A DNA stretch of 31,536 bases from Myxococcales bacterium. GTDB lineage: Bacteria; Myxococcota_A; UBA9042. Below the pieces are notes generated by a model that was not told where the DNA came from, made no database searches, and saw only the letters and a list, made by a program, of their open reading frames with translations. Position 1 is the first letter of the stretch. Each line of letters begins with the position of its first letter. The stretch covers positions 1 through 31,536 of the forward strand of contig JBBISH010000080.1 in assembly GCA_037441385.1 (NCBI GenBank), read 5' to 3'. A program made the translations under genes and the position numbers. Below are positions 12,335-27,156 of this stretch, piece after piece.

Positions 12335-13570
12335 TTATCCGTTCGCGGCGGCGGCCAGTGCCTGATCGACAGCAGCCCTCTGGCGCCGCCACGCCACGAT
12401 GCGCTCCGGTGTGACGCGGGCTTGGAGCTGGCGATCCCGCAGCGGATGCCCCGCCACCGCACGGGCATAGCTCCCGAGCGCGACCTCCACGGAGCCCGCT
12501 GAATGCATCACGGAAACCAGCTCGCCCGATTGCCGATCGAGATCGAGAATTTCGCAAGGAATGGCCACAGCGACGCTCTGCCCCTTTGACCGAGAAAGCG
12601 AAATTCGCCCGTCGGCCTGGTCCTGCCGTGTTTGGAACCAGGGCGGCGGGTAGGGCCAGTCCGCCGGTTTGAAATTGGGCTGACTTCCAACCAGGCGCCA
12701 GCGCCCGTCCGCCACCGCGCTCAGCGACGTCGCCAGCAGAGCGCAGGCTTGTTCTGGAGCCAGGTCCTGTAGGTCCTCGATCCTTGGACATCCTTCGAAT
12801 ATCAACGGAAAGCCGTAGAGCAGGGCATCCCCAAACAGCACCAATCCGGGCTCGCGCGCGACCACCAGGGCGACGCCGATGCCGCCACCCAGCAACGGCA
12901 TGGCCAACCAGTGGCCTGCGCGCACCGACCGATCCGTAGTCCTGCCAGCTGGAATGCTGGGTTGCGCCCTCTGGGCCGCGCGTTGCCGAGCCGCAGCCGC
13001 CCACGCCGTCCAGGTGGCGAGCCGATCCGGGTCGATGGGGGTCACCTGGATGGTCAGGTCCCAAAACCCCGGCCTTCGACCCCGCGCATGGTTCCGCAGG
13101 GCCGACTCCAACCGGCTGGCGCCACTGACGAAGGAGAAGCGGGGAAAGTGGGCCGCAGTCTCGCGATCCGTCGGGTGGTTGTCCGCGACCGTCGCCGTGG
13201 CGGTGTCGTCGGTGGTCTCGATGGAGTACAGGTCGTGCGGCTCAGCCGGCCGATCGAAGTCGCCCGCCCCGGTTGGCAGGACCGGCCAGTCCGCCGGGTC
13301 AAAGTCGGCCACCGCGCCGCGTCGCTGCCACCGCCCGTTCGCAAAGGGCCGTGGCGGCAGCAAGCCAATCCAGGCGTCGGTCCAGCGGGCGAGCGGGGGC
13401 ATCTGGGCCGCAAGCTGCGGATCGACAAGGGGTTGCATGTGCAAGTACGCAAGAACCAGCGGGACTTTGCTGTTGGCGGGCGCCACCCGCGCCACCACCA
13501 GGGCAAAGTGCCCCACGTCCTGGATAGGAATGGTCCAGATGTCACCGGGTTGCACAGTGTTGTTCGCCAT
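12335..13570 (-). CDS. Tandem-duplicated Imm26-like immunity-domain protein
   Basis: Two similar halves begin VQPGDIWTIPI...ALVVAR and VRAGHWLAMPL...ALVVAR. Each later has GRW...G...FxPADWP. Confidence 0.55.
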   Translation of the reverse strand: MANNTVQPGDIWTIPIQDVGHFALVVARVAPANSKVPLVLAYLHMQPLVDPQLAAQMPPLARWTDAWIGLLPPRPFANGRWQRRGAVADFDPADWPVLPTGAGDFDRPAEPHDLYSIETTDDTATATVADNHPTDRETAAHFPRFSFVSGASRLESALRNHARGRRPGFWDLTIQVTPIDPDRLATWTAWAAAARQRAAQRAQPSIPAGRTTDRSVRAGHWLAMPLLGGGIGVALVVAREPGLVLFGDALLYGFPLIFEGCPRIEDLQDLAPEQACALLATSLSAVADGRWRLVGSQPNFKPADWPYPPPWFQTRQDQADGRISLSRSKGQSVAVAIPCEILDLDRQSGELVSVMHSAGSVEVALGSYARAVAGHPLRDRQLQARVTPERIVAWRRQRAAVDQALAAAANG

Positions 13571-13954: not shown

Positions 13955-14008
13955 ACCCGGCGGCTAAAGCCGCAGGCTAACTCTACAAAGCCCGGCCTCC
14001 GCCGGGCC
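13955..14008. repeat. Bipartite REP-like double hairpin
   Basis: CCCGGCGGCTAAAGCCGCAGGCT, spacer, GCCCGGCCTCCGCCGGGC. Same layout as the ends flanking tnpA at 26601 and 27099. Confidence 0.55.
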
Positions 14009-15151: not shown

Positions 15152-15362
15152 GTTGGGGGGCATTTTCTACTGCCCAAGATTATTCGCATTTGGGCGCCTC
15201 GCCGCTGCCGCGGCGACCCGGCCACGACTTTGGGCGAAGTAGGATTCCGGCCGGAATCGCGGGCTCCTGCGCCCAAAGCGGCGCGCGGCGCCGCCCTGCG
15301 GGTTCGTGTCCGTGGCGCGGCACCGCCGTGGCCGGCGGTGGGGCAGAACGGGAGACGGAGCC
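15152..15362. repeat. ~200-bp structured intergenic repeat, copy 3
   Basis: Begins ~27 bp after the HEPN stop. Near-identical to copies 2 and 4. Confidence 0.95.
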
Positions 15363-15573: not shown

Positions 15574-15645
15574 TCAACCGCCGGTTGTAGGTTGCTCCGT
15601 AGGTTGCTCTGCTACTGCCCGTGCTCGCCCTCTTGCGCCCGGCCA

Positions 15646-15686
15646 TATTGGACATTTTATGTCCAATACGCGGAAAATAGATTTCG
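15646..15686. promoter_or_regulatory. Palindrome plus GAAAATAGATTTCG motif, module 3
   Basis: TATTGGACAT-TTT-ATGTCCAATA is a perfect inverted repeat, followed by CGCGGAAAATAGATTTCG. Confidence 0.7.
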
Positions 15687-15703
15687 CCGGGCCACCTCAG
15701 TCA

Positions 15704-16258
15704 CTAATCCATCGCCGAGCTTCGCCCCTGCTGCTCCGCCTGCTCGACCTCCACCGCCGTACGAAACGCGTCCAGCCACGCCACCTGCCCCTTGGCCTCC
15801 ACCTGCTGCAGCAGCCGCACCACCGCCCGCACCGCCTCGGTGTAAGGTTCGCGTTGCTTGCGCGGCGGTTTGTCGGTCGGTTGGCCCGCTTGGAGGTACT
15901 TGGCCTCGGCGACCACCTTGGTCATGGGGCGGTCCAGCGCGGCCACCGGCATCTGCTGCGCCATGGCGGTGACCACTTGGGCCGTGGTGCAGTAGCGGCG
16001 CACCTGGCGGACGTCGATGCCCAGGCGCTCGGCGTGCGCGGCCTCCCAGGCGGTGACGCCGCTGCGGGCCTTGGGTTTGCTGGCCAGGAGCGTTTGGCCG
16101 AGTTTGATGCGGTAGGCGTTGGCGTGGATCTGCGCGGTTTGGGTGGTGGTCGAGAGGGAGGAGAGGTAGGATTCGGGGGTTTGGTCCGGGGCTGGGTCGG
16201 GGAGCTGGTTGAGGAGGTCGGCTATGGTTTGGGGTTCGGCGGGGCTGGGTTGCGACAT
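15704..16258 (-). CDS. Repeated HTH-containing protein (DUF3102-like)
   Basis: Likely start MSQPSP at 16258. IKLGQTLLASK...W...AERLGIDVRQVRRY resembles an HTH/DUF3102 pattern. Conserved paralog at 19280. Confidence 0.7.
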   Translation of the reverse strand: MSQPSPAEPQTIADLLNQLPDPAPDQTPESYLSSLSTTTQTAQIHANAYRIKLGQTLLASKPKARSGVTAWEAAHAERLGIDVRQVRRYCTTAQVVTAMAQQMPVAALDRPMTKVVAEAKYLQAGQPTDKPPRKQREPYTEAVRAVVRLLQQVEAKGQVAWLDAFRTAVEVEQAEQQGRSSAMD

Positions 16259-16743
16259 GGTGGGGCTTCCCGGCGTCCGATTTTGCCGGACGCGAAATAG
16301 ATTTCGACGAATTGCAGTGAGCATGTCAAGGCGTCCCGGCCCGGCGATGGAGGGTGCCGGGGATCTTCTGAACGGCTACCGCCGGGCCGTCGCGCTGCGG
16401 CCGCCGGTCGAGCGTAGGTCATGCGCGGTGACTGAGTTCTTGCTCCCGGCGGTGGCGACGCTCGGTCGCGCCGCCACCCTTGCGGGCTGGCATCGCTGAC
16501 GCGGGGTTGGGGTTTGCCGTGGTTGCGCGGGGCAGAAGGTGGGGGTATTGAGCGGCGGGAATTCATTTCCTGGAATGTGCCAGCCGAGCACAGCGTGCGT
16601 CCCTGTGAACTCCCATCCCCATGAATACTGAAGGTGAAGTTGCTGTGGCGTCGTCGCCCAGCCGTTGACTGAACTGCCCTGCAAGCGTAGCCTCGCAGGC
16701 GTCCGCTGCGGGCCGAATTGGCGACCGTGCGAACCGGAGCGCC

Positions 16744-18471
16744 ATGGTGACCGCCGTCATGCAGTTCAACACCGCGAACCAGACGCTGCGGCAGCTACTC
16801 GGCAACGGGCTCACCTACCGAGTACCGCCGTTCCAGCGCGACTATTCGTGGGACCAAGAGCAGTGGGAAGAACTGTGGCAGGATATCCTGCAAATCTCTG
16901 CTCCTACCGCCGCGGGTTCGGCGCCAAGTGCGCATTACTTGGGCTACGTGGTTCTGCAGAGTGTCGATAGCAAACAGTTCGACGTGATCGACGGGCAGCA
17001 GCGCCTGGCGACCCTCACCTTGGTGTTTCTGGCTGGCATCGAGCTGCTCGAACAGATGGTCCGGCAAGGGGTTGAGGCCGACGCCAACCGGCAGCGTGCT
17101 GTAGCCCTGCGCGCTACGTACGTCGGTTTCCTTGACCCTGTCACGCTTCTCAGCCGCAACAAGCTGACCCTCAACCGCAACGACAAGTATTTCTTCGAGA
17201 CCTATCTCGCGCCGCTGCAAGCTCCTCCGCGCGGCCGCAGCTTGGCCCCGTCGAACCGGCTGCTGCTGCAAGCCTACACTTGGCTCAGCAAGCAGCTGCA
17301 AAGCCACTTGGCCGGCGCAACCGGTGCTGCTGTGGCGCAGTTGCTGGCCGACATGGCCGACCGCCTGTTCTTCACGGTGATTTCGGTTGCCGACGAGCTC
17401 AACGCGTTTACGGTCTTTGAGACCCTGAACTCGCGCGGCGTCCGACTGTCGTCGACCGACCTGCTCAAGAACTACCTGTTCTCTCTGGTCTCGCGCCACG
17501 GCGCCGACGACCGCGAGCTCAACCAGCTCGAAATCCAGTGGCAGGCCATTCTCGACAAGCTCGGCGACGAGGACTTTCCCAACTATCTGCGCGTCTGGTG
17601 GAACGGCAGGCACCCCCTGGCGCGTCAGAGTGAGTTATTCAAAGAAGTTCGGAAACATACCACGGAGCGGGGCGAGGTCTTTGAGCTCCTGCGCGCTCTG
17701 GACCGCATGGCCGGCGTGTACGTCGCTCTGGGCAAGCCCGAATCCGAACTGTGGACCCACAGCCAGCGCGAGGCCCTTGAGCAGTTGAAAATGTTCGGGG
17801 TCAAGCAGCCCTTCGTGTTGCTGCTTGCTGCCTACGAGCAGCTTGGGCACGATGATTTTGCCCGATTGGCCGAGGCCTGCGCGGTGTTGAGCTTTCGCTA
17901 CAACGTAATCGGCGGCCTGCATACCGGCGAGCAAGAGAAGGTCTACCACGACCTAGCTGTGCGCATCAGTACCGCATCCGATTGGCGCCTGCACGACATC
18001 TTGGTCGACTTGGCCGCGCTCGCGCCTAAGGACGATCAATTTCGCTCCAACTTCGCACAAGTTCAGCTCCGCACGACCAGCCCACGCAACAAGCGAATTG
18101 CACGGTATATTTGCGCGCGCTTGCAGCATCACTTGGGTGGTGCACTGGTCGACCCCGACGACGGCACGTACACCCTCGAACATATTTTGCCTGAGAACCC
18201 GGATCCCGACGCCTGGCCCGACATCGACCCCGACGAAGCGCGTCAATGGTGCTACCGGCTTGGCAATTACACGCTGCTCGAGTCCTCCAAGAACCAATCG
18301 GCCGCCAATCGCAGCTGGGCCGAGAAGCGACCGATCTTTGGGCAAAGTGCCGTCGGTTTGACCCAGGGCGTGGCCGAGCGGTATGTCGAAGCATGGGGAC
18401 CGGTGCAGATCGACAAGCGCCAGAAGTACTTGGCGCAGCAGGCCGTTGCGGCTTGGCGACTTGTGGTTTAG
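16744..18471 (+). CDS. DUF262-DUF1524 protein (GmrSD/SspE-like NTPase-HNH nuclease)
   Basis: PPFQRDYSW, IDGQQRL and FETLNSRG are DUF262 motifs. LEHILPE...LGNYTLL...N is the HNH/DUF1524 motif. Confidence 0.9.
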   Translation: MVTAVMQFNTANQTLRQLLGNGLTYRVPPFQRDYSWDQEQWEELWQDILQISAPTAAGSAPSAHYLGYVVLQSVDSKQFDVIDGQQRLATLTLVFLAGIELLEQMVRQGVEADANRQRAVALRATYVGFLDPVTLLSRNKLTLNRNDKYFFETYLAPLQAPPRGRSLAPSNRLLLQAYTWLSKQLQSHLAGATGAAVAQLLADMADRLFFTVISVADELNAFTVFETLNSRGVRLSSTDLLKNYLFSLVSRHGADDRELNQLEIQWQAILDKLGDEDFPNYLRVWWNGRHPLARQSELFKEVRKHTTERGEVFELLRALDRMAGVYVALGKPESELWTHSQREALEQLKMFGVKQPFVLLLAAYEQLGHDDFARLAEACAVLSFRYNVIGGLHTGEQEKVYHDLAVRISTASDWRLHDILVDLAALAPKDDQFRSNFAQVQLRTTSPRNKRIARYICARLQHHLGGALVDPDDGTYTLEHILPENPDPDAWPDIDPDEARQWCYRLGNYTLLESSKNQSAANRSWAEKRPIFGQSAVGLTQGVAERYVEAWGPVQIDKRQKYLAQQAVAAWRLVV

Positions 18472-18964
18472 TGGTGGCCGTCCCGGTACGCCGCCTTTGC
18501 GGACCGCGGCTGGTCGGTGGCCGTTGGCGGCAGCTCGTTCCGCTTGGCTTGCTGCAGGGATCGGCGCTGACCTGGGCATCGCCCTGTGTGGCCAAGCCAG
18601 GCATGGCCGACATGATGGACACCGCGTTCCAGACAGCCGGTCGGGCCATGGGGCTCGCGTCCTTGGCGCCGCTCTTGTTGTGATATTTGTTGCCGTATCC
18701 ATCGAAGCTGGCCGTTTGTCGGCGGCGCGTTGGCTCAGTCGCGCATTGGCGGCGGCGGCGCTGGCGGTGGTCGCTGGCCTGGTCTGCTTGGCGGTTGCGC
18801 CAGGCTTGCTGTTGGCGGTGGCACCAATCTACCTGGTTGGCATGCCGGGCATGCCCACGCTGGCGATCGGCACGGTCAAGTGGCCCCGGGTCCGTCTCGC
18901 GCTTTGGGCGGCGTTGGTTGCCCTGTGGTCGCTCCTTGCGTTCTGGCTGCTGCGCATCGGGTAG
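18471..18964 (+). pseudogene. Small membrane protein, apparently frameshifted near 18660
   Basis: A GTG overlapping the DUF262 stop opens a signal-like frame that ends at 18683. The multi-TM part (LGAALVVIFVAV...LLAFWLLRIG) is in another frame ending at 18964. Confidence 0.35.
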
Positions 18965-18987
18965 CGGTTGTTCCGGGGGGCATCCGA

Positions 18988-19198
18988 TTGGGGGGCAATT
19001 TCTACTGCGCGAGATTATTCGGATCTGGGCGCCTCGCCGCTGCCGCGGCGACCCGGCCACGACTTTGGGCGAAGAAGGATTCCGGTTGGAATCGCGGGCT
19101 CCTGCGCCCAAAGCGGCGCGCGGCGCCGCCCTTCGGGTTCGTGTCCGTGGCGCGGCACCGCCGTGGCCGGCGGTGGGGCCAGAACGGGAGACGGAGCC
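18988..19198. repeat. ~200-bp structured intergenic repeat, copy 4
   Basis: Begins ~24 bp after the membrane-protein stop. Near-identical to copies 2 and 3. Confidence 0.95.
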
Positions 19199-19222
19199 AC
19201 GTCCGGGGCCCGCGACGGGCGC

Positions 19223-19263
19223 TATTGGAACTTTTGGTTCCAATACGCGGGAAATAGATTTCG
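19223..19263. promoter_or_regulatory. Palindrome plus GAAATAGATTTCG motif, module 4
   Basis: TATTGGAACT-TTT-GGTTCCAATA followed by CGCGGGAAATAGATTTCG. Confidence 0.7.
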
Positions 19264-19279
19264 CCCGGCCTACCAACCG

Positions 19280-19831
19280 CTAATCCATCGCCGCGTTTCG
19301 TCCCTGCTGCTCCGCCTGCTCGACCTCGACCGCCGTGCGAAACGCATCCAGCCACGCCACCTGCCCCTCGGGCTCGACCTGTTGGAGTAACCTGACCACC
19401 GCTCGCACCGCCTCGGTGTACGGCTCGCGTTGCTTGCGCGGCGGTTTGTCGGTCGGTTGGCCCGCCTGGAGGTGCTTGGCCTCGGCGACCACCTTGGTCA
19501 TGGGGCGGTCCAGCGCGGCCACCGGCATCTGTTGGGCCATGGCGGTGACCACTTGGGCCGTGGTGCAGTAGCGGCGCACCTGGCGGACGTCGATGCCCAG
19601 GCGCTCGGCGTGCGCGGCCTCCCAGGCGGTAACGCCGCTGCGGGCCTTGGGTTTGCTGGCCAGGAGCGTTTGGCCCAGCTTGATGCGGTAGGCGTTGGCG
19701 TGGATCTGCGCGGTTTGGGCGGTGGTCGAGAGGGAGGAGAGGTAGGATTCGGGGGGTTGGTCTGGGGCTGGGTCGGGGAGCTGGTTGAGGAGGTCGTGGA
19801 TGGTTTGGGCGGGGGTGGGTTCGGTGGACAT
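19280..19831 (-). CDS. Repeated HTH-containing protein (DUF3102-like), second full copy
   Basis: AAGGA RBS, start MSTEPT at 19831. Differs from the 15704 copy at 8 residues after the QTI motif. Confidence 0.75.
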   Translation of the reverse strand: MSTEPTPAQTIHDLLNQLPDPAPDQPPESYLSSLSTTAQTAQIHANAYRIKLGQTLLASKPKARSGVTAWEAAHAERLGIDVRQVRRYCTTAQVVTAMAQQMPVAALDRPMTKVVAEAKHLQAGQPTDKPPRKQREPYTEAVRAVVRLLQQVEPEGQVAWLDAFRTAVEVEQAEQQGRNAAMD

Positions 19832-19995
19832 GCTCGTGGTCCTTGGCGCCGCGGGGCGGCACACGTTGGAGCTATGTTCCCAACTTGGCTGTGGTTGTCA
19901 ATGACATATTACCTGAAATATGAAAGTAACTACTCCTTGCCGATGCCCTTCGGACGGGCTAACCTGCAACACCTCCGGAACATGGGGCCCCAGCG

Positions 19996-22900
19996 ATGCA
20001 GCCAATGAATCGTCGTGAATTCGAAGTCGCACTTTCCTTTCCAGGGGAAGAGCGCAGATTTGTGTCGAAACTTGCCAAGCATCTGGCTGACCAACTCGGA
20101 GAGCAGCGCGTGCTTTACGACAAGTTCCACATGGGCCGATTCGCTGCCCTGGACCTTGACGCCACCTTGCCCAACCTATACCGAACCGAATCGGAACTCG
20201 TAGTAATACTGCTCTGCCCCGACTACACGAAGAAACGCTGGTGCGGCCTTGAGTGGCGCGCCATCAAGCAGATCATTGCAACTCCTGAGCAAAAGCGGAT
20301 CTTGCTCTTGAAACGTGGCGATCCAGGCGATCTGAGTGCTCTCGGGATCTACCAAGGGGATGGTTGGCTGGAAACCAAGGGCAAGACAACGGGCGCGCTG
20401 GCAAAGATAATTCTTGATGAACTCGCGCGCCGCACCGGCTGGTCGCGTCCGCGCGTCGATGCCACGGTGTCCGTTCGGCGGCCGCCAGTGCTGGTTTTGC
20501 CGGAGCCTGAGGAATCCGACGTAAAAGATAGGGGTTGGCAGCTTGAGCCGGGCGTCCGCCGCAGTGTCGTAGGCCTGTCGGGCTTGGTTTCCTTTTCTGA
20601 CCTAGAAAGTGTGAGTTGCGTCGTTGCCATTGGCGAGCCAGGTATCGGAAAAAGCAAGGGCATGCAGCAAGAATTTCAGGCTGCACGCAGCCGACACGCG
20701 GGCGAACCATCCCACTTCGTCTTTGGTCGTGACCTGCGGGTGTATCGTGACGAGGGCAGGTTTGTGGCGGAGATCTTTGAGTCGGAGGGGTGGAGGAAAT
20801 GGTCGGCCGGCGAAGCGTGGCTCTCACTCTACCTCGACAGCCTGGACGAATGCCGTTTGGGCACGCCATTTGTCACAGACCTCCTCACGCACCAACTGGA
20901 ACTGAATCGGAGACACCTTGGAAAGCTCCGGCTCCGTGTCGCTTGTCGGACCGCCGACCTCCCGCGACAAATTGCAGATACCTGGTGCAGCGACCTGTTC
21001 AAGAGCGCCGGATTTCAAGTCGTTCGCGTTCCACCCCTGAGTGATAGCGAGGTAAGAACTATCTTGGTAGGGACTGGTGTCGACGCCGATGACCTGACCA
21101 GGCGCGTAACAGCCTTGGGGGCGGCAGACCTGCTGCGGCGGCCCATCACGTTGAACATGTTGGCGAAGGCCTTTCAGCAGGAGCATCCGCCGACGACGCT
21201 GACGGCGATCTACGAGCAAGGTTGCCTTGCACTCGCCGACGAGTGGAGCCAGGCGCGGAAGGATGAAGCCCGACTTATGTCTGGGTATCTTTCGGCTCAA
21301 GCGAAGTTGGCTATCGACACTCACGCCGCAGCTCTATTGATCCTTTCGAATCGTCGGTTTATGGGTGACCGCGAGTTCGAGCACGCGGAGGACAGCATTC
21401 CTGTAGCAGATGTAGCCACTGGCGCTCCGGTGCCCGCGGGTGCCACCGCTGACCGGCTGGGCGCAGTTCGCGACTGCCTCAAGATGGCCTTGTTTTCCAT
21501 GCCAGATCCAACGCAGGACCTGACGGAGTTCGCGCACCGTACCTACTGCGAGTTCCTGGCAAGCCGGCACCCGAATCGCGAGGCATTGATCTCCTTGCTC
21601 AAAACCGACGGCGAGTCCGGAGCGCGCATCGTGCCGCAACTTGCGGAAGTTGCGGCTTGGCTTGCTTGCAACGACGAGGAGTTTCGCCGCTTCGTGCTGT
21701 CGACGCAGCCTCAACTGTTGCTCAGCAGTGATGTCGTACGGTCCGATGAGCTAGGCAAGGCCGACGTTGCAGAAGCGCTAATAGGGGCCGTCGACGACAA
21801 GAAAGTCGCGCTGAACGAGGTACTGTACCTCGACGGATTTCCCGATTTGAAGTCCGACCGCGTTGCCGGGCTCGTTGGCTGCTGGATTCAAGACAACAAT
21901 CGCACACTTGAGGCCAGACTGCTCGCTTGCACTATTGCCCATGAGGCCAAGCTACTGGCCACGGCAGATGGTCTATATGCTGTCCTTGCCGACAAAGACC
22001 AGGATCTCCGGCTTCGAGTTGCCGCCGCGCGTACCATCGCCGGCTTGGGCGATGTGAGGGTCAACAGGCTGCGGCCGTTTGCCGAAGGACTTCCAGAAGA
22101 CGCCAACGACGAAATCAAGGGGTATGCGCTCAGCGCGCTCTTCCCTGCGGACATCCCTCCAACGGAACTGTTTGGATACATTTCCCCCCCAAAAAACGAC
22201 AGCTTTTACGGGGCGTACATGGCGTTCCTACATGGCCGCATGCAAAGCATCGACGTTGCGCTTGTGGTGCCGGGGCTGCGGTGGTGCCTTGGGGTGAACC
22301 GGAGCGCCCACGATTTCGGTGCAGTCATCGACCTTGCGGACGCGATAGTACGCAAAGCCTGGACGTCATTGGCAGATCCGGAAGTCGTTTCGTTGCTTGC
22401 CCAGCTTGCCGTAACCTGGGCCGGTAACTACGAATCCATACTCCCTGTGCCAGCAAAGTCTTGGGTTCACATCACGGATCAAGACGCGGTTGGCGGCGAG
22501 CTATCCGACCAGGCTCGTCGAGCGGTGATCTTCGACATGCTGGCCCACGGTCGAGCAACACGAGAACTATGGGACAATATTGTGTTTTCGCAGCATCCCC
22601 TGGCGTTGGGTAAAGACGCGGCGTGGCTGCTCGGACTCAAGAAGCAACTCCCAAGCGAGCAGCACCCAATCTGGGCCACGCTTACCGAGACTCTATTTCG
22701 CGTCCCCGGGCAGAACTACTTCGACCTAGTTGCAGAGCACCTTGCCGAAATTCTTGACGACCTTGATCTTAAGTGTGCGTTTTCAAAAGTTTTGGAGCCT
22801 GTCGCCCTCGCCGGTCCCGAAGCCGCATCGGCGCGGGCCATGTTGCAGAGTGATGCGGAGTGGCGCAGGCAGAGCGAAATACGAAAGCAAGAGGAAGATG

Positions 22901-24096
22901 AGCGGAAACTGAAAGAGGACCCTCGAACACGGGTGCTTCGCTTTCTGGAAGAGGCCGAAGGCGATCAGGTAAACGGCTGGTGGAAGGTCTGGCTGCAACT
23001 AACCCTGACCCCTGACAGCACGCGGTACGGTAACCCGCTCCACACGATCGTGACGGCGATGCCTGGGTGGCGCGACGCTGGCCCGGATACCAGAGAGCGA
23101 CTGGTCGCACTTGCGGCCAGGTACTTAGAGACAGGAAGTCCTAGCTTTTCGGAGTGGTTTGGAAAGTCAACGATCCACTACCCGGCTTCAGCCGGTTACG
23201 CCGCGTTTGGTCTGTTGTTCGAGGCTGCGTCACCGCAGTATCAGGCAATTCCTTCGGGGATCTGGCAGAAGTGGGCAAAAACGATCGTCGCGGTGCCGGT
23301 AGACGGCGAAGCTGAGAGGTCGCTCCATGCAATGCTTGTCGCCGACGCTTACGCTGAAGCGCCAGAGGAGGTCCTAGACACTCTACTTGAGCTCATACTC
23401 GAGGAAAACAGAACCCATGGCCACATCTTCAGCCACACCCTAGTCGCTGCTTGCTGGGATGAGCGAATTCGTCTGTTCTTCCAGAACCTTCTCACTACTC
23501 CCGAAATGAAGCCTACGCCCGTAGGCATAGTAGCTGAGGTTCTCCTTGGGCGTGACGACAATGCAAGCCTCGGCTGGGCGTGCGATACCGTATCCGATGA
23601 AAACGCGCCTAGTGACCTTCGAATTGCCGTTGCCCGTGCCCTCATGACCAAAGCCCACGGCGCGAGTTGGGGGCGCCTCGCGCCGATCCTATGGGCGGAC
23701 CATGACCTTGCGCGCTCAGTGTTTTCGGCAGTTGCCAACTCCGCAGGATTCCTCCGGGCCTGGCCAGAGCAAGTGGACGTGGCGCGCGACGGTGCAGTTT
23801 TGACGCTGATGATCCAGGTCTTTCCGTACGCGAACGATGTTCGCCCACTGGGAGCACATACCGTTGGCCTACAAGAGCAGGCCCAGGAGATTCGCGACTC
23901 CCTCTTGCGTCGAATCGCCGGTCTGGGCACACACGCGGCTGCAGATTTCATGTCGCAGCTTGCTGTCGAACATCCCGACCTCCACTGGCTCCGAGACAGG
24001 GCACTCGAAGCCAGAACACTGGCGGAACGGAAGTCGTGGAGTCCCAAATCGCCTAAGGAGGTAGCAGCAATTCTGGCAAACAGGAACCGTCAATGA
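19996..24096 (+). CDS. TIR - STAND (NACHT-like) NTPase - helical repeat protein, putative defence sensor/effector
   Basis: N-terminal TIR (FEVALSFPGE, WCGLEW with catalytic-type Glu), Walker A GEPGIGKS (20632-20655), Walker B LYLDSLDE, FAHRTYCEFLAS winged-helix motif and a long alpha-helical C-terminus. Visibly lower GC than the flanks. Confidence 0.85.
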   Translation: MQPMNRREFEVALSFPGEERRFVSKLAKHLADQLGEQRVLYDKFHMGRFAALDLDATLPNLYRTESELVVILLCPDYTKKRWCGLEWRAIKQIIATPEQKRILLLKRGDPGDLSALGIYQGDGWLETKGKTTGALAKIILDELARRTGWSRPRVDATVSVRRPPVLVLPEPEESDVKDRGWQLEPGVRRSVVGLSGLVSFSDLESVSCVVAIGEPGIGKSKGMQQEFQAARSRHAGEPSHFVFGRDLRVYRDEGRFVAEIFESEGWRKWSAGEAWLSLYLDSLDECRLGTPFVTDLLTHQLELNRRHLGKLRLRVACRTADLPRQIADTWCSDLFKSAGFQVVRVPPLSDSEVRTILVGTGVDADDLTRRVTALGAADLLRRPITLNMLAKAFQQEHPPTTLTAIYEQGCLALADEWSQARKDEARLMSGYLSAQAKLAIDTHAAALLILSNRRFMGDREFEHAEDSIPVADVATGAPVPAGATADRLGAVRDCLKMALFSMPDPTQDLTEFAHRTYCEFLASRHPNREALISLLKTDGESGARIVPQLAEVAAWLACNDEEFRRFVLSTQPQLLLSSDVVRSDELGKADVAEALIGAVDDKKVALNEVLYLDGFPDLKSDRVAGLVGCWIQDNNRTLEARLLACTIAHEAKLLATADGLYAVLADKDQDLRLRVAAARTIAGLGDVRVNRLRPFAEGLPEDANDEIKGYALSALFPADIPPTELFGYISPPKNDSFYGAYMAFLHGRMQSIDVALVVPGLRWCLGVNRSAHDFGAVIDLADAIVRKAWTSLADPEVVSLLAQLAVTWAGNYESILPVPAKSWVHITDQDAVGGELSDQARRAVIFDMLAHGRATRELWDNIVFSQHPLALGKDAAWLLGLKKQLPSEQHPIWATLTETLFRVPGQNYFDLVAEHLAEILDDLDLKCAFSKVLEPVALAGPEAASARAMLQSDAEWRRQSEIRKQEEDERKLKEDPRTRVLRFLEEAEGDQVNGWWKVWLQLTLTPDSTRYGNPLHTIVTAMPGWRDAGPDTRERLVALAARYLETGSPSFSEWFGKSTIHYPASAGYAAFGLLFEAASPQYQAIPSGIWQKWAKTIVAVPVDGEAERSLHAMLVADAYAEAPEEVLDTLLELILEENRTHGHIFSHTLVAACWDERIRLFFQNLLTTPEMKPTPVGIVAEVLLGRDDNASLGWACDTVSDENAPSDLRIAVARALMTKAHGASWGRLAPILWADHDLARSVFSAVANSAGFLRAWPEQVDVARDGAVLTLMIQVFPYANDVRPLGAHTVGLQEQAQEIRDSLLRRIAGLGTHAAADFMSQLAVEHPDLHWLRDRALEARTLAERKSWSPKSPKEVAAILANRNRQ

Positions 24097-25349
24097 GTGA
24101 CTTCCCGGCTTTGCCCGACATCAATAGCGATCAGGTCTCGGTCTCTGTACCAAATCCAAAACCATTGGACATCCTCGTGTTCGCCACGGAGTGGGCGCCG
24201 AGGCACGGCGGGCTGTCGACGCTAAATCAGAAGCTCTGCGTTGCACTAGCCGCCACTGGCCGCTGCCGGGTAGTCTGCTACATTCCCCCGGAGAGTGGGG
24301 AAACCCCGCGCGAAGATCGCGGTGTCCTACTGCTTCCCGCAAGGGCGGTGCCTGGCTTCCCGGCCAGCGACACGGCCCTTCTGCTGCGTCGTCCCGGGTT
24401 CGCTACCTTGCCGCGCTTCCAGGACTTTGCGCCAGATTTCGTTGTCGGTCACGATGACAAGACTGGGCCACATGCTTTGGCGGCGTGTCAGGACCACTTC
24501 CCAAGCGCCAAGCGGGTCCAGTTTGTGCATACGGAGGTCTATCCACTCCAAGGCGCAAAGACTCACTCGTCAGGCCAATTGACAAGTGCCAAGGCGTGTT
24601 TGGCCTCGGACCTCGTGAGAGAGGCTGACCTCGCCGTTGGCGTAGGTCCGCTGCTGGCCGAGGTGGCCTTTGGATACGGCGCCAAGCGCGAGCTTGCGTA
24701 TCAGCTGGATCCGGGGTTTGAGCTGTCGACTTGCGAGGTGCCACTTGCAGCGAACACCCAGCGGCGACTGAATGTTCTGGTCATTGGCCGGACGAAGGAC
24801 CCAGAGGTCAAGGGCCTTGAGCGCGCCTGCGTTGTACTTGCCGACGTGGCTGCCTACGTGCAGCACGAGGTCAATCTAATAATTCGTGGGTCAGATGATC
24901 AAAGTCAAAAGCACCTCAGCAAGCTCGCAAGAACATGGAATCGGAAGTGCCCGAACTTGAAGATTCAACCGCGTGAATTCACAGTTGAAAAGCGCGAGTT
25001 GGCGCAAGACTGGCGGGCTGCTCACCTTCTTATCGCGCCTTCTACCGTGGAAGGATTTGGGCTGGTTGCGCTTGAGGCTGCTGAGCGCGGAGTGCCCTTT
25101 CTAATTTCGAACCCATCCGGCTTCGCAAAGTGGCTCAACAGCTTGGATTCCTCTGCGTTCGACCGCCACGTGATCAATCCGCCGGGCGACGAGGAGGCTC
25201 TTCACGACGCATGGGTTGATCGAATCACCAGAATCTATCGCGACCCGGAAGGGGCCCGCCGCGAGTGCAGGAAAACCCAGGGCCTACTAGCGCCATACAC
25301 CTGGGAGCGGGCCGCGAACCAGTTGCTGGACAGGCTCGCCAGACTGTGA
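24093..25349 (+). CDS. GT4-type (GT-B) glycosyltransferase resembling the conflict-associated clade
   Basis: ATGA overlap with the TIR-STAND gene. ATEWAPRHGGLSTLN N-terminal motif, GR...KG, and Ex7E motif EGFGLVALE. Confidence 0.8.
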   Translation: MSDFPALPDINSDQVSVSVPNPKPLDILVFATEWAPRHGGLSTLNQKLCVALAATGRCRVVCYIPPESGETPREDRGVLLLPARAVPGFPASDTALLLRRPGFATLPRFQDFAPDFVVGHDDKTGPHALAACQDHFPSAKRVQFVHTEVYPLQGAKTHSSGQLTSAKACLASDLVREADLAVGVGPLLAEVAFGYGAKRELAYQLDPGFELSTCEVPLAANTQRRLNVLVIGRTKDPEVKGLERACVVLADVAAYVQHEVNLIIRGSDDQSQKHLSKLARTWNRKCPNLKIQPREFTVEKRELAQDWRAAHLLIAPSTVEGFGLVALEAAERGVPFLISNPSGFAKWLNSLDSSAFDRHVINPPGDEEALHDAWVDRITRIYRDPEGARRECRKTQGLLAPYTWERAANQLLDRLARL

Positions 25350-25433
25350 CCGTCGCCCACCGGCCGCAGACAAGCGCCAACTCGGGCCCCCCGGCCATTC
25401 CTGGCGCGAGTTCACTCGCCAACCTACCACCCC

Positions 25434-26474
25434 TCAAACACAAAACTCCGCCAAAACCTCCCCCACCCGCAACTCCCGATTCCCCAAAACCTCCCGCACC
25501 CGCGCCACCCCGCGCCGCAACAACTTCCCAGCGCTCACCGGCACCGCCGCCAGCGCATCCTCGATCGCCCCAGGATGCTGCTCGGCCAAGACCGCCAGCA
25601 GCACCGTGGCCTGCCGCACCTCTGTGTGCGAGCCGCCCCGCAACTCCGCCACCAGCAGCTTGTGCACCGCAAAGCGCTCGGGCGCCGGCACCCGCACTTG
25701 GCAGCAGCCGTCGCGGGCCAGCAGCAGCCCCGAGTGCGTTTCGCCAAGCAGATACCGTAGATACGGCAAGGCTTGCGCGTGTGCCTGCAGCTCGGGCACG
25801 GCCACGATGCCAAACGTGTCGTCGGGCGACGGCACTAGCAGATCCACCTGAAAGCGGCTGCGGCCTTGCTCTTTCCAACTCGTCGCCGGCTGGCGCGCGT
25901 CCAGGCCAGGCACTTCCACGAACGCAATCCCTGGCGCCCCGAGCATTTCGAGCAAGCTTTGGCGCGGCGGCTCGGCAAAGGCCAGGGCGCCCTGCCGGGC
26001 CACATCGACGTCTTCGGTCGCGTACCCTGCGGCGCGGGCCCCCAGTTGGTTCAAGAGCACCCCAAAAGCGTGCGAGCCGATGAGCACCGCCCCGGCTCGG
26101 AACACCCCGTGGTTGTGCAGGCTTGCCAGCGCCGCAAACGCCCGCGGATCGGCCAGTTGATAGCCCTCGCGACCCAGCAGGCGCAGGTCTTGGGCGGTCG
26201 TCCTGGCCTCCTCCATCCGCAGCCGGAGCTGCTCGGCGGCCTGGTCGGCCACGGCGTCGCCCACCGGCCCGGCCACGTACTGCTCGCGCTTCTTGCTGTC
26301 GGCATCGTAGAATTGCCTGGCATAGAAGCGGAACCCCGCCGCGTTCTCGCGTTGCAGCAGCGAGCCGGGCGTGCCGATGAGCACCTCGCCCTGGGCCGCG
26401 GCGTGATTGGCCAGGTCGCCGTACAGCACGGTCAGCGGCCGCGGGTGCAGGGTGTACAGGGGTCGGCCGTTCAT
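25434..26474 (-). CDS. GSU2403-like nucleotidyltransferase-fold protein
   Basis: Likely start MNGRPLY at 26474. LIGSHAF, ATEDVDVA, VDLLVP and PERFAVHKL motifs. Confidence 0.75.
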   Translation of the reverse strand: MNGRPLYTLHPRPLTVLYGDLANHAAAQGEVLIGTPGSLLQRENAAGFRFYARQFYDADSKKREQYVAGPVGDAVADQAAEQLRLRMEEARTTAQDLRLLGREGYQLADPRAFAALASLHNHGVFRAGAVLIGSHAFGVLLNQLGARAAGYATEDVDVARQGALAFAEPPRQSLLEMLGAPGIAFVEVPGLDARQPATSWKEQGRSRFQVDLLVPSPDDTFGIVAVPELQAHAQALPYLRYLLGETHSGLLLARDGCCQVRVPAPERFAVHKLLVAELRGGSHTEVRQATVLLAVLAEQHPGAIEDALAAVPVSAGKLLRRGVARVREVLGNRELRVGEVLAEFCV

Positions 26475-26523
26475 GGGAGCCTTTGCGGCGGTCGCGCCTG
26501 GCGGAATTCTGGCGATTTCCCGA

Positions 26524-26554
26524 GTATCCGTCAACCCGCCAACCTGACGGATAC
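26524..26554. terminator. 10-bp stem-loop (terminator or element-end hairpin)
   Basis: GTATCCGTCA...TGACGGATAC, repeated at 31078-31116. No clear U-tract. Confidence 0.35.
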
Positions 26555-26600
26555 AGCCCGACGAGCCCGCCAGCCGGTACGGCGGCCCCGGCACGGCGGG

Positions 26601-27156
26601 GGCGACCCAGGAATGAATTCCCGGGCTCGCAGTGACCAACGCCCTCCTCCGAGGGCTGCTCAGGCGCTTCGGTCGGTGCTGGGCAGCACGTCGCGGCTCC
26701 GCTCCCAGTCGGCGTGGACTGTGCCGGTGCTGTGATGCTGCTCCTGGCCCTGCACATAAGCCGCTACATCCTCAAAGTCCGCCGCCGCAAACGTGAACGC
26801 GCCATACCCTCCCTGCCAGCGCAGGGCAACTTGACGGCGGCCCGCTTCGCGGCTCGTGGCGCCCTTCAGGTCCTTGACCACGTCGGCCACGGCCACAGTC
26901 GCCGGCAGATCCATGGCGATATGCACATGGTCTTCAACGCCCCCGACCACTACGATGCCGGCGCCGAGGCTTCGGGCCCGCTGCGCAAGCGCCGGATGCA
27001 GCCACTGGCGCACCTCAAGAGTCAGAATGGGCGCCCGGTCCCACGTGGACCAAACCAAGTGCACGTACAGCTGCTTGAGCGAACGAACCATTCCTTCCTC
27101 AGCCCGCGGAGGCGGGCGTCTTTAACGCGAGCCCGGGAATTCATTCCCGGGTCGCC
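26601..27156 (-). mobile_element. REP-flanked Y1 transposase unit (IS200/IS605 TnpA or TnpA-REP type)
   Basis: 30-bp inverted ends GGCGACCCAGGAATGAATTCCCGGGCTCGC and GCGAGCCCGGGAATTCATTCCCGGGTCGCC (1 mismatch). Each is itself a hairpin, with a second inner hairpin. Confidence 0.75.
26660..27091 (-). CDS. tnpA: IS200/IS605-family Y1 HUH transposase
   Basis: HLVWST, GGVEDHVH (HUH), LKGATS, WQGGYGAF and catalytic Tyr in AAYVQGQEQHH. Confidence 0.9.
   Translation of the reverse strand: MVRSLKQLYVHLVWSTWDRAPILTLEVRQWLHPALAQRARSLGAGIVVVGGVEDHVHIAMDLPATVAVADVVKDLKGATSREAGRRQVALRWQGGYGAFTFAAADFEDVAAYVQGQEQHHSTGTVHADWERSRDVLPSTDRSA

Follow-up and report, generated by a model that had tools for sequence, protein, structure and literature searches.

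STAND NTPases that carry a GT4 glycosyltransferase have been predicted to be conflict proteins (Kaur, Iyer, Burroughs & Aravind 2021, eLife 10:e70394, PMC8195603). Section 15 of that paper describes STAND-GT4 fusions with an N-terminal TIR domain, as well as operons of GT4 with TIR-STAND genes, and the source data of its Figure 6 list TIR+APATPase+GT4 proteins, a NACHT+GT4 protein of 1646 aa and an operon of the form GT4→TIR+APATPase+TPR. GT4-conflict is also described there as massively expanded in corals and other marine invertebrates. In the parts of the paper drawn on here the GT4 systems are all predictions and no experiment is reported. Experiments on any GT4-conflict protein, i.e. on a glycosylation target or on defence, were not found in the literature searched, nor were papers naming GT4-conflict, PF20706, DUF8371 or PF28130. 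A second related group is that of the bNACHT proteins (Kibby et al., bioRxiv 10.1101/2022.07.19.500537). In the part of that study drawn on, the list of effector types includes TIR and GT4, the bNACHT genes tested are rarely in operons and their effectors are mostly N-terminal.

The window, i.e. the whole stretch of 31,536 nt that was analyzed, contains two adjacent genes, P0001 and P0002, that combine these modules. The features are as follows, all on the forward strand.

19996..24096 (+), gene for the TIR-NACHT STAND protein (P0001, 1366 aa), from the open reading frame and its translation
20026..20319 (+), TIR domain, residues 11–108, with putative catalytic Glu86, from Pfam TIR_2 and alignment with RUN1/RPS4
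20632..20850 (+), P-loop NTPase core from Walker A (213–220) to Walker B (278–285), from the sequence and alignment A1
21670..24093 (+), mostly helical C-terminal region, approximately residues 560–1366, presumed sensor, from the model and the homologue alignment
24093..24096 (+), ATGA stop/start overlap, from the sequence
24093..25349 (+), gene for a stand-alone GT4-conflict glycosyltransferase (P0002, 418 aa), from PF20706, AlphaFold and Foldseek
25050..25076 (+), Ex7E motif of the GT4 (E320...E328), from the sequence and the family alignment

The stop codon of P0001 and the start codon of P0002 share the nucleotides ATGA, with the two open reading frames in different frames. Judging from this overlap, translation of the two genes is probably coupled. 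P0010 is the public gene call for P0001; it starts at Met4 and has a chain length of 1363 aa. The GC content of the operon is 0.575–0.614 in 1-kb windows from 19501 to 25500, about 0.59 overall compared with about 0.68 in the flanks (0.680 at 18501–19500 and 0.703 at 25501–26500). The operon is situated in a lower-GC variable stretch adjoining a GmrSD type IV restriction gene, which is located 1.5 kb upstream. A promoter and terminator scan of positions 18400–26000 gave counts not above those of shuffled sequence. A search for RNA runs containing the stretch found none, and the DNA runs found come from one study only. The first-pass annotation had described a lower-GC two-gene operon with an ATGA overlap, an intact TIR glutamate, Walker A and B motifs and a GT-B Ex7E motif, and each of these holds in the comparisons presented here.

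The TIR_2 domain (PF13676) of P0001 is at aa positions 11–108 (E-value = 3.4e-9, 37.7 bits with a cut-off of 28). Glu86, in the sequence RWCGLE, corresponds by alignment to the Glu of the WC..E motif in the TIR chains of plant RUN1 and RPS4. This position is presumably that of the catalytic residue of the TIR NADases. Of 72 metagenomic loci with TIR relatives, 67 extend over this position, all of which retain Glu86; the other five do not reach it. The AlphaFold model of residues 1–195 has pLDDT values mostly below 50, and TIR is present in just three of the 20 alignment rows.

Walker A (GEPGIGKS) is at aa positions 213–220 and Walker B (LYLDSLDE) at positions 278–285. Across the 17 homologues of alignment A1, residues G213, G216, G218, K219, D281, D284 and E285 show little or no variation. 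Of the three families for which the first-pass annotation proposed HMM searches, TIR_2 and GT4-conflict were recovered; the Pfam NACHT model (PF05729) has no match in P0001 at E-values up to 1. PF05729 is present in two more distant TIR-bearing proteins, and clade members carry the public names "NACHT family NTPase" or "NACHT domain-containing protein". The AlphaFold model of residues 200–800 has a pLDDT of about 75–95. Foldseek searches with this segment give NOD2 as the best match (E-value = 1.1e-9), with NLRP2/5/7/9/14, NLRC4 and NLRP3, and then Avs4. The modelled secondary structure beyond the NTPase core is helical to residue 800, and the C-terminal helical region is presumed to be the sensor.

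P0002 displays a GT4-conflict domain (PF20706) at residues 28–411 that encompasses profile positions 1–385 of 385 (E-value = 1.5e-91, 307.7 bits). The cut-off of 26 bits is permissive, as all 14 control genomes also matched, and the assignment therefore rests on score and coverage. The next-best Pfam family is Glyco_trans_1_4 (E-value = 4.9e-12), and generic GT families are at about 1e-12. The first-pass annotation had already proposed this assignment from an EW...GGLST.N motif, and the full-length match bears this out. The motif is at residues 33–45; in an alignment of 50 family sequences, E33, W34, G39, G40, S42 and N45 each reach 90% conservation or more. E320 and E328 of the Ex7E motif are invariant in the 50 family members, which include P0002, as are H120, H146, R233 and K240; we take the conserved Arg and Lys to bind the donor phosphate. 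The AlphaFold model (pLDDT 92.5) shows a GT-B fold with two Rossmann domains, and the top Foldseek matches are MshA, glycogen synthase, WaaG, BshA and PimA with 12–19% identity.

In a search of 1.84 billion cluster representatives, the best match of P0002 is P0043, which is itself the GT4 partner of a TIR-STAND gene (locus L009, see below). Lengths above 460 aa, taken as fusion to other domains, are found for 135 of the 149 nearest representatives. Most of the 149 are C-terminal domains of STAND or Roc-COR proteins. The clustering with ordinary LPS/EPS enzymes that the first-pass annotation had considered is thus not seen. A domain scan of 37 long relatives shows 18 with STAND-type P-loop domains, five with LRR-Roc-COR, and one with a weak TIR_2 match below the cut-off. 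P0067 and P0116 are stand-alone GT4s. A scan of viral contigs with the GT4 alignment (A3) gave 13 loci, of which three are near full-length, weak matches with 24–29% identity.

In all three TIR-type loci that have downstream DNA, i.e. the window, L009 (genome G018) and L163 (genome G035), the sensor gene is immediately followed by a GT4 gene, and the stop and start of the two overlap. The survey of co-occurrence proposed in the first-pass annotation thus shows a conserved pairing. The overlap is 8 nt in both of the other loci, ATGACTAA in L009 and ATGCCTAG in L163. The sensors of L009 and L163 have 44–45% and 44% aa identity to P0001, and P0011, a TIR-STAND protein on an 8.2-kb contig, has 55%. 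All three paired genomes belong to one myxobacterial family, and the three loci are therefore kin and not independent. The TIR-type sensor is patchy in distribution, being present in three of the 107 genomes of the class and in none of the ten other genomes of the genus. A metagenome scan with the TIR-STAND alignment (A2) gave 72 loci that match in the TIR part only; a P0001-like STAND domain or a GT4 was found in none of them. Neither the domain E-values nor the recurrence of the overlapping pair in two other genomes could plausibly arise by chance.

The C-terminal end of the sensor is a position of interchangeable domains in the large STAND clade of P0001. A DUF8371-like domain is found there in 65 of the 80 genomic loci of the clade; L055 has PNP_UDP_1 and L082 an adenylate/guanylate cyclase domain at this position. 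Further clade members have C-terminal TIR_2, CHAT, SIR2_2, PNP_UDP_1 or DUF4365. Among the 80 loci L009 alone resembles the window, with no C-terminal domain, a TIR and a downstream GT4. The C-terminal region of P0001 can be aligned over its length with 16 homologues, and 15 of these (15 of the 17 in the alignment) display an extra C-terminal domain of about 230 aa, which is absent from P0001. An assignment of this clade domain as a PD-(D/E)xK nuclease was based solely on a conserved D...ExK and was rejected; the Atlas assignment is DUF8371. A sequence search of the PDB with a profile of the domain (A5) gave no matches at E-values up to 10. P0090 (1652 aa) and P0111 (1649 aa) are of the same STAND type and have GT4-conflict fused at the C-terminal end, without a TIR. 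As the C-terminal position is empty in P0001 and a GT4 gene is next to it, the GT4 is best read, from this comparison of sequences, as a second effector that is provided in trans and adds to the N-terminal TIR.

A FastTree phylogeny of 151 GT4 domains places the three paired GT4s in one clade (support 88). Their sister group, inside an eight-row clade (support 86), consists of the GT4 domains of the fused proteins P0090, P0111 and P0122. The GT4 tree thus favors the view that the split arose when a fused NACHT-GT4 ancestor underwent fission. The STAND tree does not favor it: P0090 and P0111 are not beside the TIR-type proteins and are placed elsewhere, with weak support. Fission is therefore only one possible origin of the split, and independent capture of the GT4 is another.

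We consider it probable that the two genes form an NLR-like conflict module, most likely antiphage, with P0001 as sensor and switch and with TIR and GT4 as two outputs. By analogy with Avs and bNACHT proteins, the helical region of P0001 would recognize a cue from the invader and drive NTP-dependent oligomerization. This would cluster the TIR domains and lead to cleavage of NAD+, in keeping with established TIR biochemistry. P0002 takes the C-terminal effector position of the clade, known from comparison, as a separate polypeptide and presumably binds the sensor. Upon sensor activation, P0002 may use an NDP-sugar to glycosylate a molecule of the host or the invader, most likely a protein. Alternatively it might merely drain the nucleotide-sugar pool. 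Infection would be halted under either action. A complex prediction of P0001 residues 790–1366 with P0002 (alignments A1 and A3), run without controls, gave a score of 0.20 against a mark of 0.32, a value that speaks neither in favor of binding nor against it.

The GT4 could instead be a regulator or safety device: it might glycosylate the sensor or the TIR and so keep its target inactive or return it to the resting state, or it might counter the TIR NADase in the manner of an antitoxin. The tight overlap of the genes in all three loci suggests a fixed stoichiometry, and P0001 already possesses one effector in its TIR. Yet P0090 and P0111 have a fused GT4 and no TIR, the position that the GT4 occupies in them is elsewhere held by recognized effectors (SIR2_2, CHAT, PNP_UDP_1, TIR_2), and GT4-conflict terminates many STAND and Roc-COR proteins that are otherwise effector-less. 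We therefore regard a regulatory role as unlikely. The first-pass annotation had left the GT as either a second effector or a regulator; the former fits better, given the effector position in the paralogues and the GT4 fused without TIR.

An arrangement of TIR and GT4 in series, where a nucleotide produced from NAD by the TIR, or NAD itself, is glycosylated by the GT4 so that a signal is made or quenched, would account for the two enzymes being in one operon, and is in line with the TIR+APATPase+GT4 fusions and GT4→TIR+APATPase+TPR operons in the source data of Kaur et al. 2021 (PMC8195603). It is very improbable, however, since most of the GT4-conflict proteins scanned and the closest fused relatives have no TIR, and among the scanned open reading frames of the window neither a receptor nor a downstream effector that could respond to such a signal was seen. 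Least credible, and largely refuted, is a chance neighbor, i.e. an envelope or metabolic glycosyltransferase of the ordinary kind that is next to a TIR-STAND gene by coincidence. P0002 does share its overall GT-B fold with MshA, WaaG and PimA and has weak NCBIfam matches to metabolic GT4 families, but the best of these scores 39.1 bits, far under the cut-off of 259.85, and identity to the solved GT4 structures is low. The full-length PF20706 match and the recurrence of the overlapping neighbors in all three loci also argue against it, and no other polysaccharide gene is present among the scanned neighbors.

The preferred reading, a second effector in trans, has a more far-reaching extension. 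GT4-conflict may represent a new immune effector chemistry in NLR-type sensors: after sensor activation it would glycosylate a specific host or phage protein or burn the nucleotide-sugar pool, in parallel with NAD+ loss through the TIR, and in this lineage it would do so as a detachable subunit at the sensor C-terminus. In a bolder form it would act on the NAD-derived product of the TIR to give a glycosylated nucleotide. We think it improbable that this extension is correct. The locus is a compact natural experiment. The GT4 is already a separate 418 aa protein with a confident fold model, the paralogues of the sensor bear well-understood effector types where the GT4 belongs, and the TIR in P0001 is usable as an internal positive control. 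Effector status of the GT4, its target and its binding to the sensor thus become testable by ordinary genetics and biochemistry.

With respect to catalogued defense systems, P0001 matches only PDC-S66 among the PADLOC-DB v2 models (E-value = 0.0013, in the TIR part) and P0002 matches none. Weak similarity is seen to EruA (NF058535), an NCBIfam "NACHT domain-containing antiphage protein": residues 277–1363 of P0001 align with profile positions 71–1141 of 1318 (E-value = 4.8e-31). EruA and HyoA (NF058534) are of comparable size and have a similar layout of a NACHT followed by a long helical region. The scores of P0001 fall well short of the equivalog cut-offs (107.8 against 1000 bits for EruA, 97.1 against 1200 for HyoA), and all 11 clade homologues tested likewise match both models under the cut-offs. 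Unlike most EruA/HyoA-like members of the clade, P0001 has an N-terminal TIR and is without the C-terminal DUF8371 of about 230 aa, its similarity ending at position 1141 of the 1318 in EruA. A source paper for the names EruA and HyoA was not found in the literature searched, and the portions of the DefensePredictor paper drawn on mention neither these names nor GT4-conflict.

The bNACHT proteins of Kibby et al. and the Avs proteins share with the window the tripartite logic of effector, NACHT/STAND and sensor, and the modelled fold of P0001 residues 200–800 matches the NACHT modules of NLRs as well as Avs4. The window differs from bNACHT in that it pairs an N-terminal effector with another that is encoded by a second gene. 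Metabolic retaining GT4 enzymes (MshA, WaaG, PimA, BshA and glycogen synthase) share the GT-B fold and the Ex7E motif with P0002; the P0002 clade is set apart from them by its N-terminal signature EW..HGGLST.N and by its association with STAND and Roc-COR proteins.

The closest correspondence is with the proteins of Kaur et al. 2021, and the GT4 of the window matches the Pfam family that was built on their clade. As far as the portions of that paper drawn on extend, the modules and their order (TIR, STAND NTPase, GT4) are the same, and in both cases a sensor/switch is proposed to act with effectors. The first-pass annotation had called the system uncharacterized, and that claim of novelty is toned down here, as STAND-GT4 fusions with TIR and the corresponding operons are already in that paper (PMC8195603). 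The single-chain TIR-STAND-GT4 arrangement described there is split into two open reading frames in the window, as it is in L009 and L163. The TIR fusions listed there have an AP-ATPase, whereas the window has TIR+NACHT with the GT4 as a separate overlapping downstream gene, and no "TIR+NACHT-> GT4" row is present among the first 30 of the 977 places where "TIR" occurs in the source data, which run through the bacterial GT4 neighborhood part. Because the architecture was predicted in 2021, current concepts are not changed by this locus. TIR+NACHT followed by an overlapping, separate GT4 gene is a rare variant of a design that was predicted in print in that year.

The two genes are adjacent on the forward strand and their open reading frames have four bases in common, ATGA:

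19996–24096, forward strand, P0001, a TIR-NACHT STAND sensor of 1366 aa
24093–25349, forward strand, P0002, a GT4-conflict glycosyltransferase of 418 aa

GC content is 0.575–0.614 over positions 19501–25500, compared with 0.68–0.70 in both flanks. The window is the entire 31.5-kb contig, and the source genome is 6.6 Mb in size and 91% complete. The public gene call starts the sensor at Met4 (position 20005; 1363 aa) instead of Met1 (19996). The choice of start has no effect on the sensor domains, and a clear Shine-Dalgarno sequence is absent at both candidate positions.

P0001 displays the following domain and motifs:

residues 11–108, Pfam TIR_2 domain, score above gathering
residues 213–220, Walker A, intact and conserved
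residues 278–285, Walker B, intact and conserved

Alignment pairs Glu86 of P0001 with the Glu of the ‘WC..E’ stretch in the TIR chains of plant RUN1 and RPS4, and every one of the 67 metagenomic relatives covering the position (72 loci in total) retains this residue. An AlphaFold model of residues 1–800 is good for positions 200–800 and poor for the TIR part. By Foldseek, the model most resembles the NACHT modules of NOD2, several NLRPs, NLRC4 and NLRP3, with Avs4 ranking next. The Pfam NACHT profile does not match P0001. The NCBIfam EruA and HyoA models (‘NACHT domain-containing antiphage proteins’) do so far under their cut-offs, which is also the case in all 11 homologues tested.

The P0002 sequence matches the Pfam GT4-conflict family across the whole profile (E-value = 1.5e-91), with generic glycosyltransferase families at about 1e-12. 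It retains the Ex7E motif (E320–E328) and all invariant residues of a 50-member family alignment. The predicted structure (pLDDT 92.5) has the GT-B enzyme fold, and the closest solved structures, i.e. MshA, glycogen synthase, WaaG, BshA and PimA, show only 12%–19% identity. The first-pass annotation had described a low-GC two-gene operon with an ATGA overlap, an intact TIR Glu, Walker A and B, and a GT-B Ex7E motif with a signature resembling the GT4-conflict clade; the domain evidence for P0001 and P0002 bears this out in every detail.

The first protein search detected one close TIR-bearing relative of P0001 (P0011, 55% identity). The other relatives are 1320–1490 aa long with 19%–30% identity; these have no TIR and extend about 230 residues beyond the C-terminus of P0001. 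The homologue alignment, run against one genome per prokaryotic species, gave 80 loci of the clade. The approximately 230-residue C-terminal domain, assigned as DUF8371/PF28130 by the protein Atlas, is present in 65 of the 80 by tblastn, and a sequence search of the PDB with this domain type showed no relative. One locus, L009, is of the TIR type. Three complete open reading frames end differently: L055 with a PNP_UDP_1 phosphorylase domain, L082 with an adenylate/guanylate cyclase domain, and L087 with a short winged-helix-like tail (a weak match, under its cut-off). The remaining 11 are interrupted by contig ends or broken frames.

A word-indexed profile search of a large protein collection found 299 relatives of the sensor at E ≤ 1e-30, although the L009 sensor (P0191) is absent from the matches listed. 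A Pfam scan of eight proteins among the 120 listed places TIR_2, CHAT, SIR2_2, PNP_UDP_1 and DUF4365 at residues ~1200–1500, which is the C-terminal end. The locus endings together with these scans indicate that the C-terminal position of the clade exchanges effector-type domains. The EruA-like NACHT clade is a clean case of effector exchange at the C-terminus, rather than at the N-terminus. Comparison shows P0001 to be a NACHT-type STAND protein with an unoccupied C-terminal effector position. The domains found at this end of the clade are DUF8371, TIR_2, CHAT, SIR2_2, PNP_UDP_1, DUF4365, adenylate/guanylate cyclase and GT4-conflict, with examples in P0195, P0197, P0225, P0239, P0229, P0247, P0272 and P0219 and in loci L055 and L082.

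P0002 was searched exhaustively with HMMER against 1.84 billion cluster representatives; this gave 1959 matches at E ≤ 0.001, of which 324 reach E ≤ 1e-30. Among the 149 best matches, only 14 are of stand-alone size (≤460 aa), 65 have 461–800 aa, 53 have 801–1300 aa and 17 are longer; the GT4 is C-terminal in most. Domains were scanned in 37 of the 70 proteins longer than 800 aa, i.e. all 17 above 1300 aa and 20 of the 53 with 801–1300 aa. STAND-type P-loop domains (AAA_22, AAA_16, NACHT, NB-ARC), usually with TPRs, are found in 18 of the 37 and LRR-Roc-COR in five. HSP70, WXG100 and a weak, sub-cutoff TIR_2 are found once each. P0044 (2733 aa) has a WXG100-like N-terminal domain and two tandem GT4-conflict domains, an arrangement that fits the secreted polymorphic-toxin use of GT4 described by Kaur et al.

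The STAND type of P0001 itself occurs in four of the 149 best matches. P0090 (1652 aa) and P0111 (1649 aa) are full-length STAND proteins with a C-terminally fused GT4 and no TIR, and P0122 is a fragment of a similar fusion. P0057 (1735 aa) has the GT4-conflict domain at its N-terminal end (residues 26–389) and the same STAND type at 583–1316, thus the GT4 is able to sit at either end in this family. These fusions place GT4-conflict among the fillers of the clade's effector position. The first-pass annotation had weighed its proposal against a clustering of the glycosyltransferase with LPS/EPS enzymes, and the opposite is seen. On sequence comparison, P0002 is encoded exactly at the sensor's empty C-terminal effector position, as an overlapping gene.

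The pairing proposed in the first-pass annotation is conserved. The best match of P0002 in the exhaustive search is P0043 (37% identity), and its gene immediately follows the sensor gene of L009 (contig 17 of genome G018), the genomic locus most closely related to P0001. The L009 sensor is 44%–45% identical to P0001, has the TIR and is without the C-terminal domain. At L163 (contig 547 of genome G035) a 44% identical TIR-STAND gene is followed by the first 172 GT4 residues up to the contig end, and the remainder of this GT4 appears on another contig. The sensor and GT4 genes share an 8-nt overlap in both loci. The pair is thus present, with overlapping genes, in 3 of the 3 loci where it can be checked. 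The module is a real, intact and conserved two-gene unit. All three genomes belong to one family, so the recurrence reflects shared descent rather than independent events, and the depth of divergence (44%–45% identity in the sensor, 35%–50% in the GT4) shows long-term retention of the pair.

Few genomes carry the module, and its distribution is patchy. Among 107 genomes of the class the TIR-type sensor was detected in three, and among 10 other genomes of the genus in none. P0002 relatives (E ≤ 1e-20) were detected in five of the 401 genomes sampled from the phylum, and two of these five are other large fusions. These counts are lower bounds, and the pattern used in the one-genome-per-species scan misses P0001's own sequence. 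No DNA match to positions 19996–25349 was found in the genus genomes, and a JGI metagenome scan showed no further instances of the module.

A FastTree of 151 GT4 domains unites the three operonic GT4s (SH-like support 88), with two other stand-alone GT4s (97) branching next and the GT4 domains of P0090, P0111 and P0122 (86) after these. The GT4s associated with this STAND clade therefore appear to form a single lineage. A second FastTree, built on 61 STAND cores, groups the four TIR-type sensors in one clade (support 100) whose sister is a PNP-bearing Minicystis protein (82), and P0090 and P0111 are placed elsewhere on weakly supported branches. The separate genes may go back to a fused gene that underwent fission, or a GT4 may have been transferred between sub-lineages; given the FastTree supports and the long branches, the trees should be read with caution.

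With respect to possible function, the long helical region of P0001 may read an invader cue, as in Avs, bNACHT and NLR proteins. By analogy with these proteins and with TIR enzymes, NTP-dependent assembly would gather the TIR domains, leading to NAD+ cleavage, and the same assembly may activate or concentrate the glycosyltransferase. The gene overlap would keep sensor and GT4 in fixed proportion. As the putative action of the GT4, protein glycosylation is ranked first and nucleotide-sugar depletion second.

The surroundings of the operon display the following features:

13955–14007, 15192–15328, 16330–16504 and 19027–19153, short repeats of 50–180 nt
15637–16277 and 19218–19855, ~640-bp direct repeat flanking the GmrSD gene (core 16000–16233 and 19576–19809)
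16744–18471, forward strand, GmrSD type IV restriction endonuclease gene carrying the N-terminal as well as the C-terminal Pfam domain
25434–26639, reverse strand, PF12281 (NTP_transf_8) nucleotidyltransferase gene, convergent to the GT4 gene
26660–27091, reverse strand, IS200-like Y1 transposase open reading frame (Pfam Y1_Tnp, E-value = 3.9e-19)

The GmrSD gene is 1.5 kb upstream of the operon and its GC content is also lowered (~0.62). It is 81% conserved in one same-genus genome, where similarity to the window ends at about position 18964. The 234-nt core of the direct repeat is 96% identical between the copies, and a copy of the repeat also flanks the GmrSD orthologue in a genome of the genus (83% identity). 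The short repeats have dozens of copies in the source genome and other genus genomes (72%–94% identity) and are probably a structured REP-like family. The transposase, flanked by 30-nt inverted repeats with 97% complementarity (26601–27156), may be their RAYT-type partner. The PF12281 gene is conserved at 65%–72% DNA identity on other contigs of several genus genomes, and therefore lies outside the variable operon. Given its GmrSD, repeat and transposase neighbors, the operon occupies a variable region of lower GC content with many repeats, next to another defense gene. An open reading frame at positions 12335–13570 on the reverse strand has a weak match to Imm26, a polymorphic-toxin immunity protein (E-value = 6.8e-6, 26.8 bits against a cut-off of 23.3).

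The name GT4-conflict or PF20706 is found in no paper of the searched open literature, nor is an experiment on a GT4-conflict effector reported there. Kaur et al. 2021 (PMC8195603) predict an effector role for bacterial GT4 domains, which they describe as fused to AP-ATPase, NACHT and SWACOS STAND modules, in some cases with an N-terminal TIR or caspase, and suggest that GT4 modifies invader molecules or interfaces. The source data of their Fig. 6 include TIR+APATPase+GT4 (772–839 aa) and NACHT+GT4 (1646 aa) proteins, and also operons, for example GT4→TIR+APATPase+TPR. An entry with TIR+NACHT and a separate GT4 gene after it is absent among the TIR-containing rows covered in their bacterial GT4 table. 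Kibby et al. (10.1101/2022.07.19.500537) include GT4 when listing the protein-modifying effectors that bacterial NACHT proteins may carry. The class to which the module belongs is already predicted by Kaur et al. 2021, and the module in the window, with its predicted function, is a split, dual-effector variant of that class.
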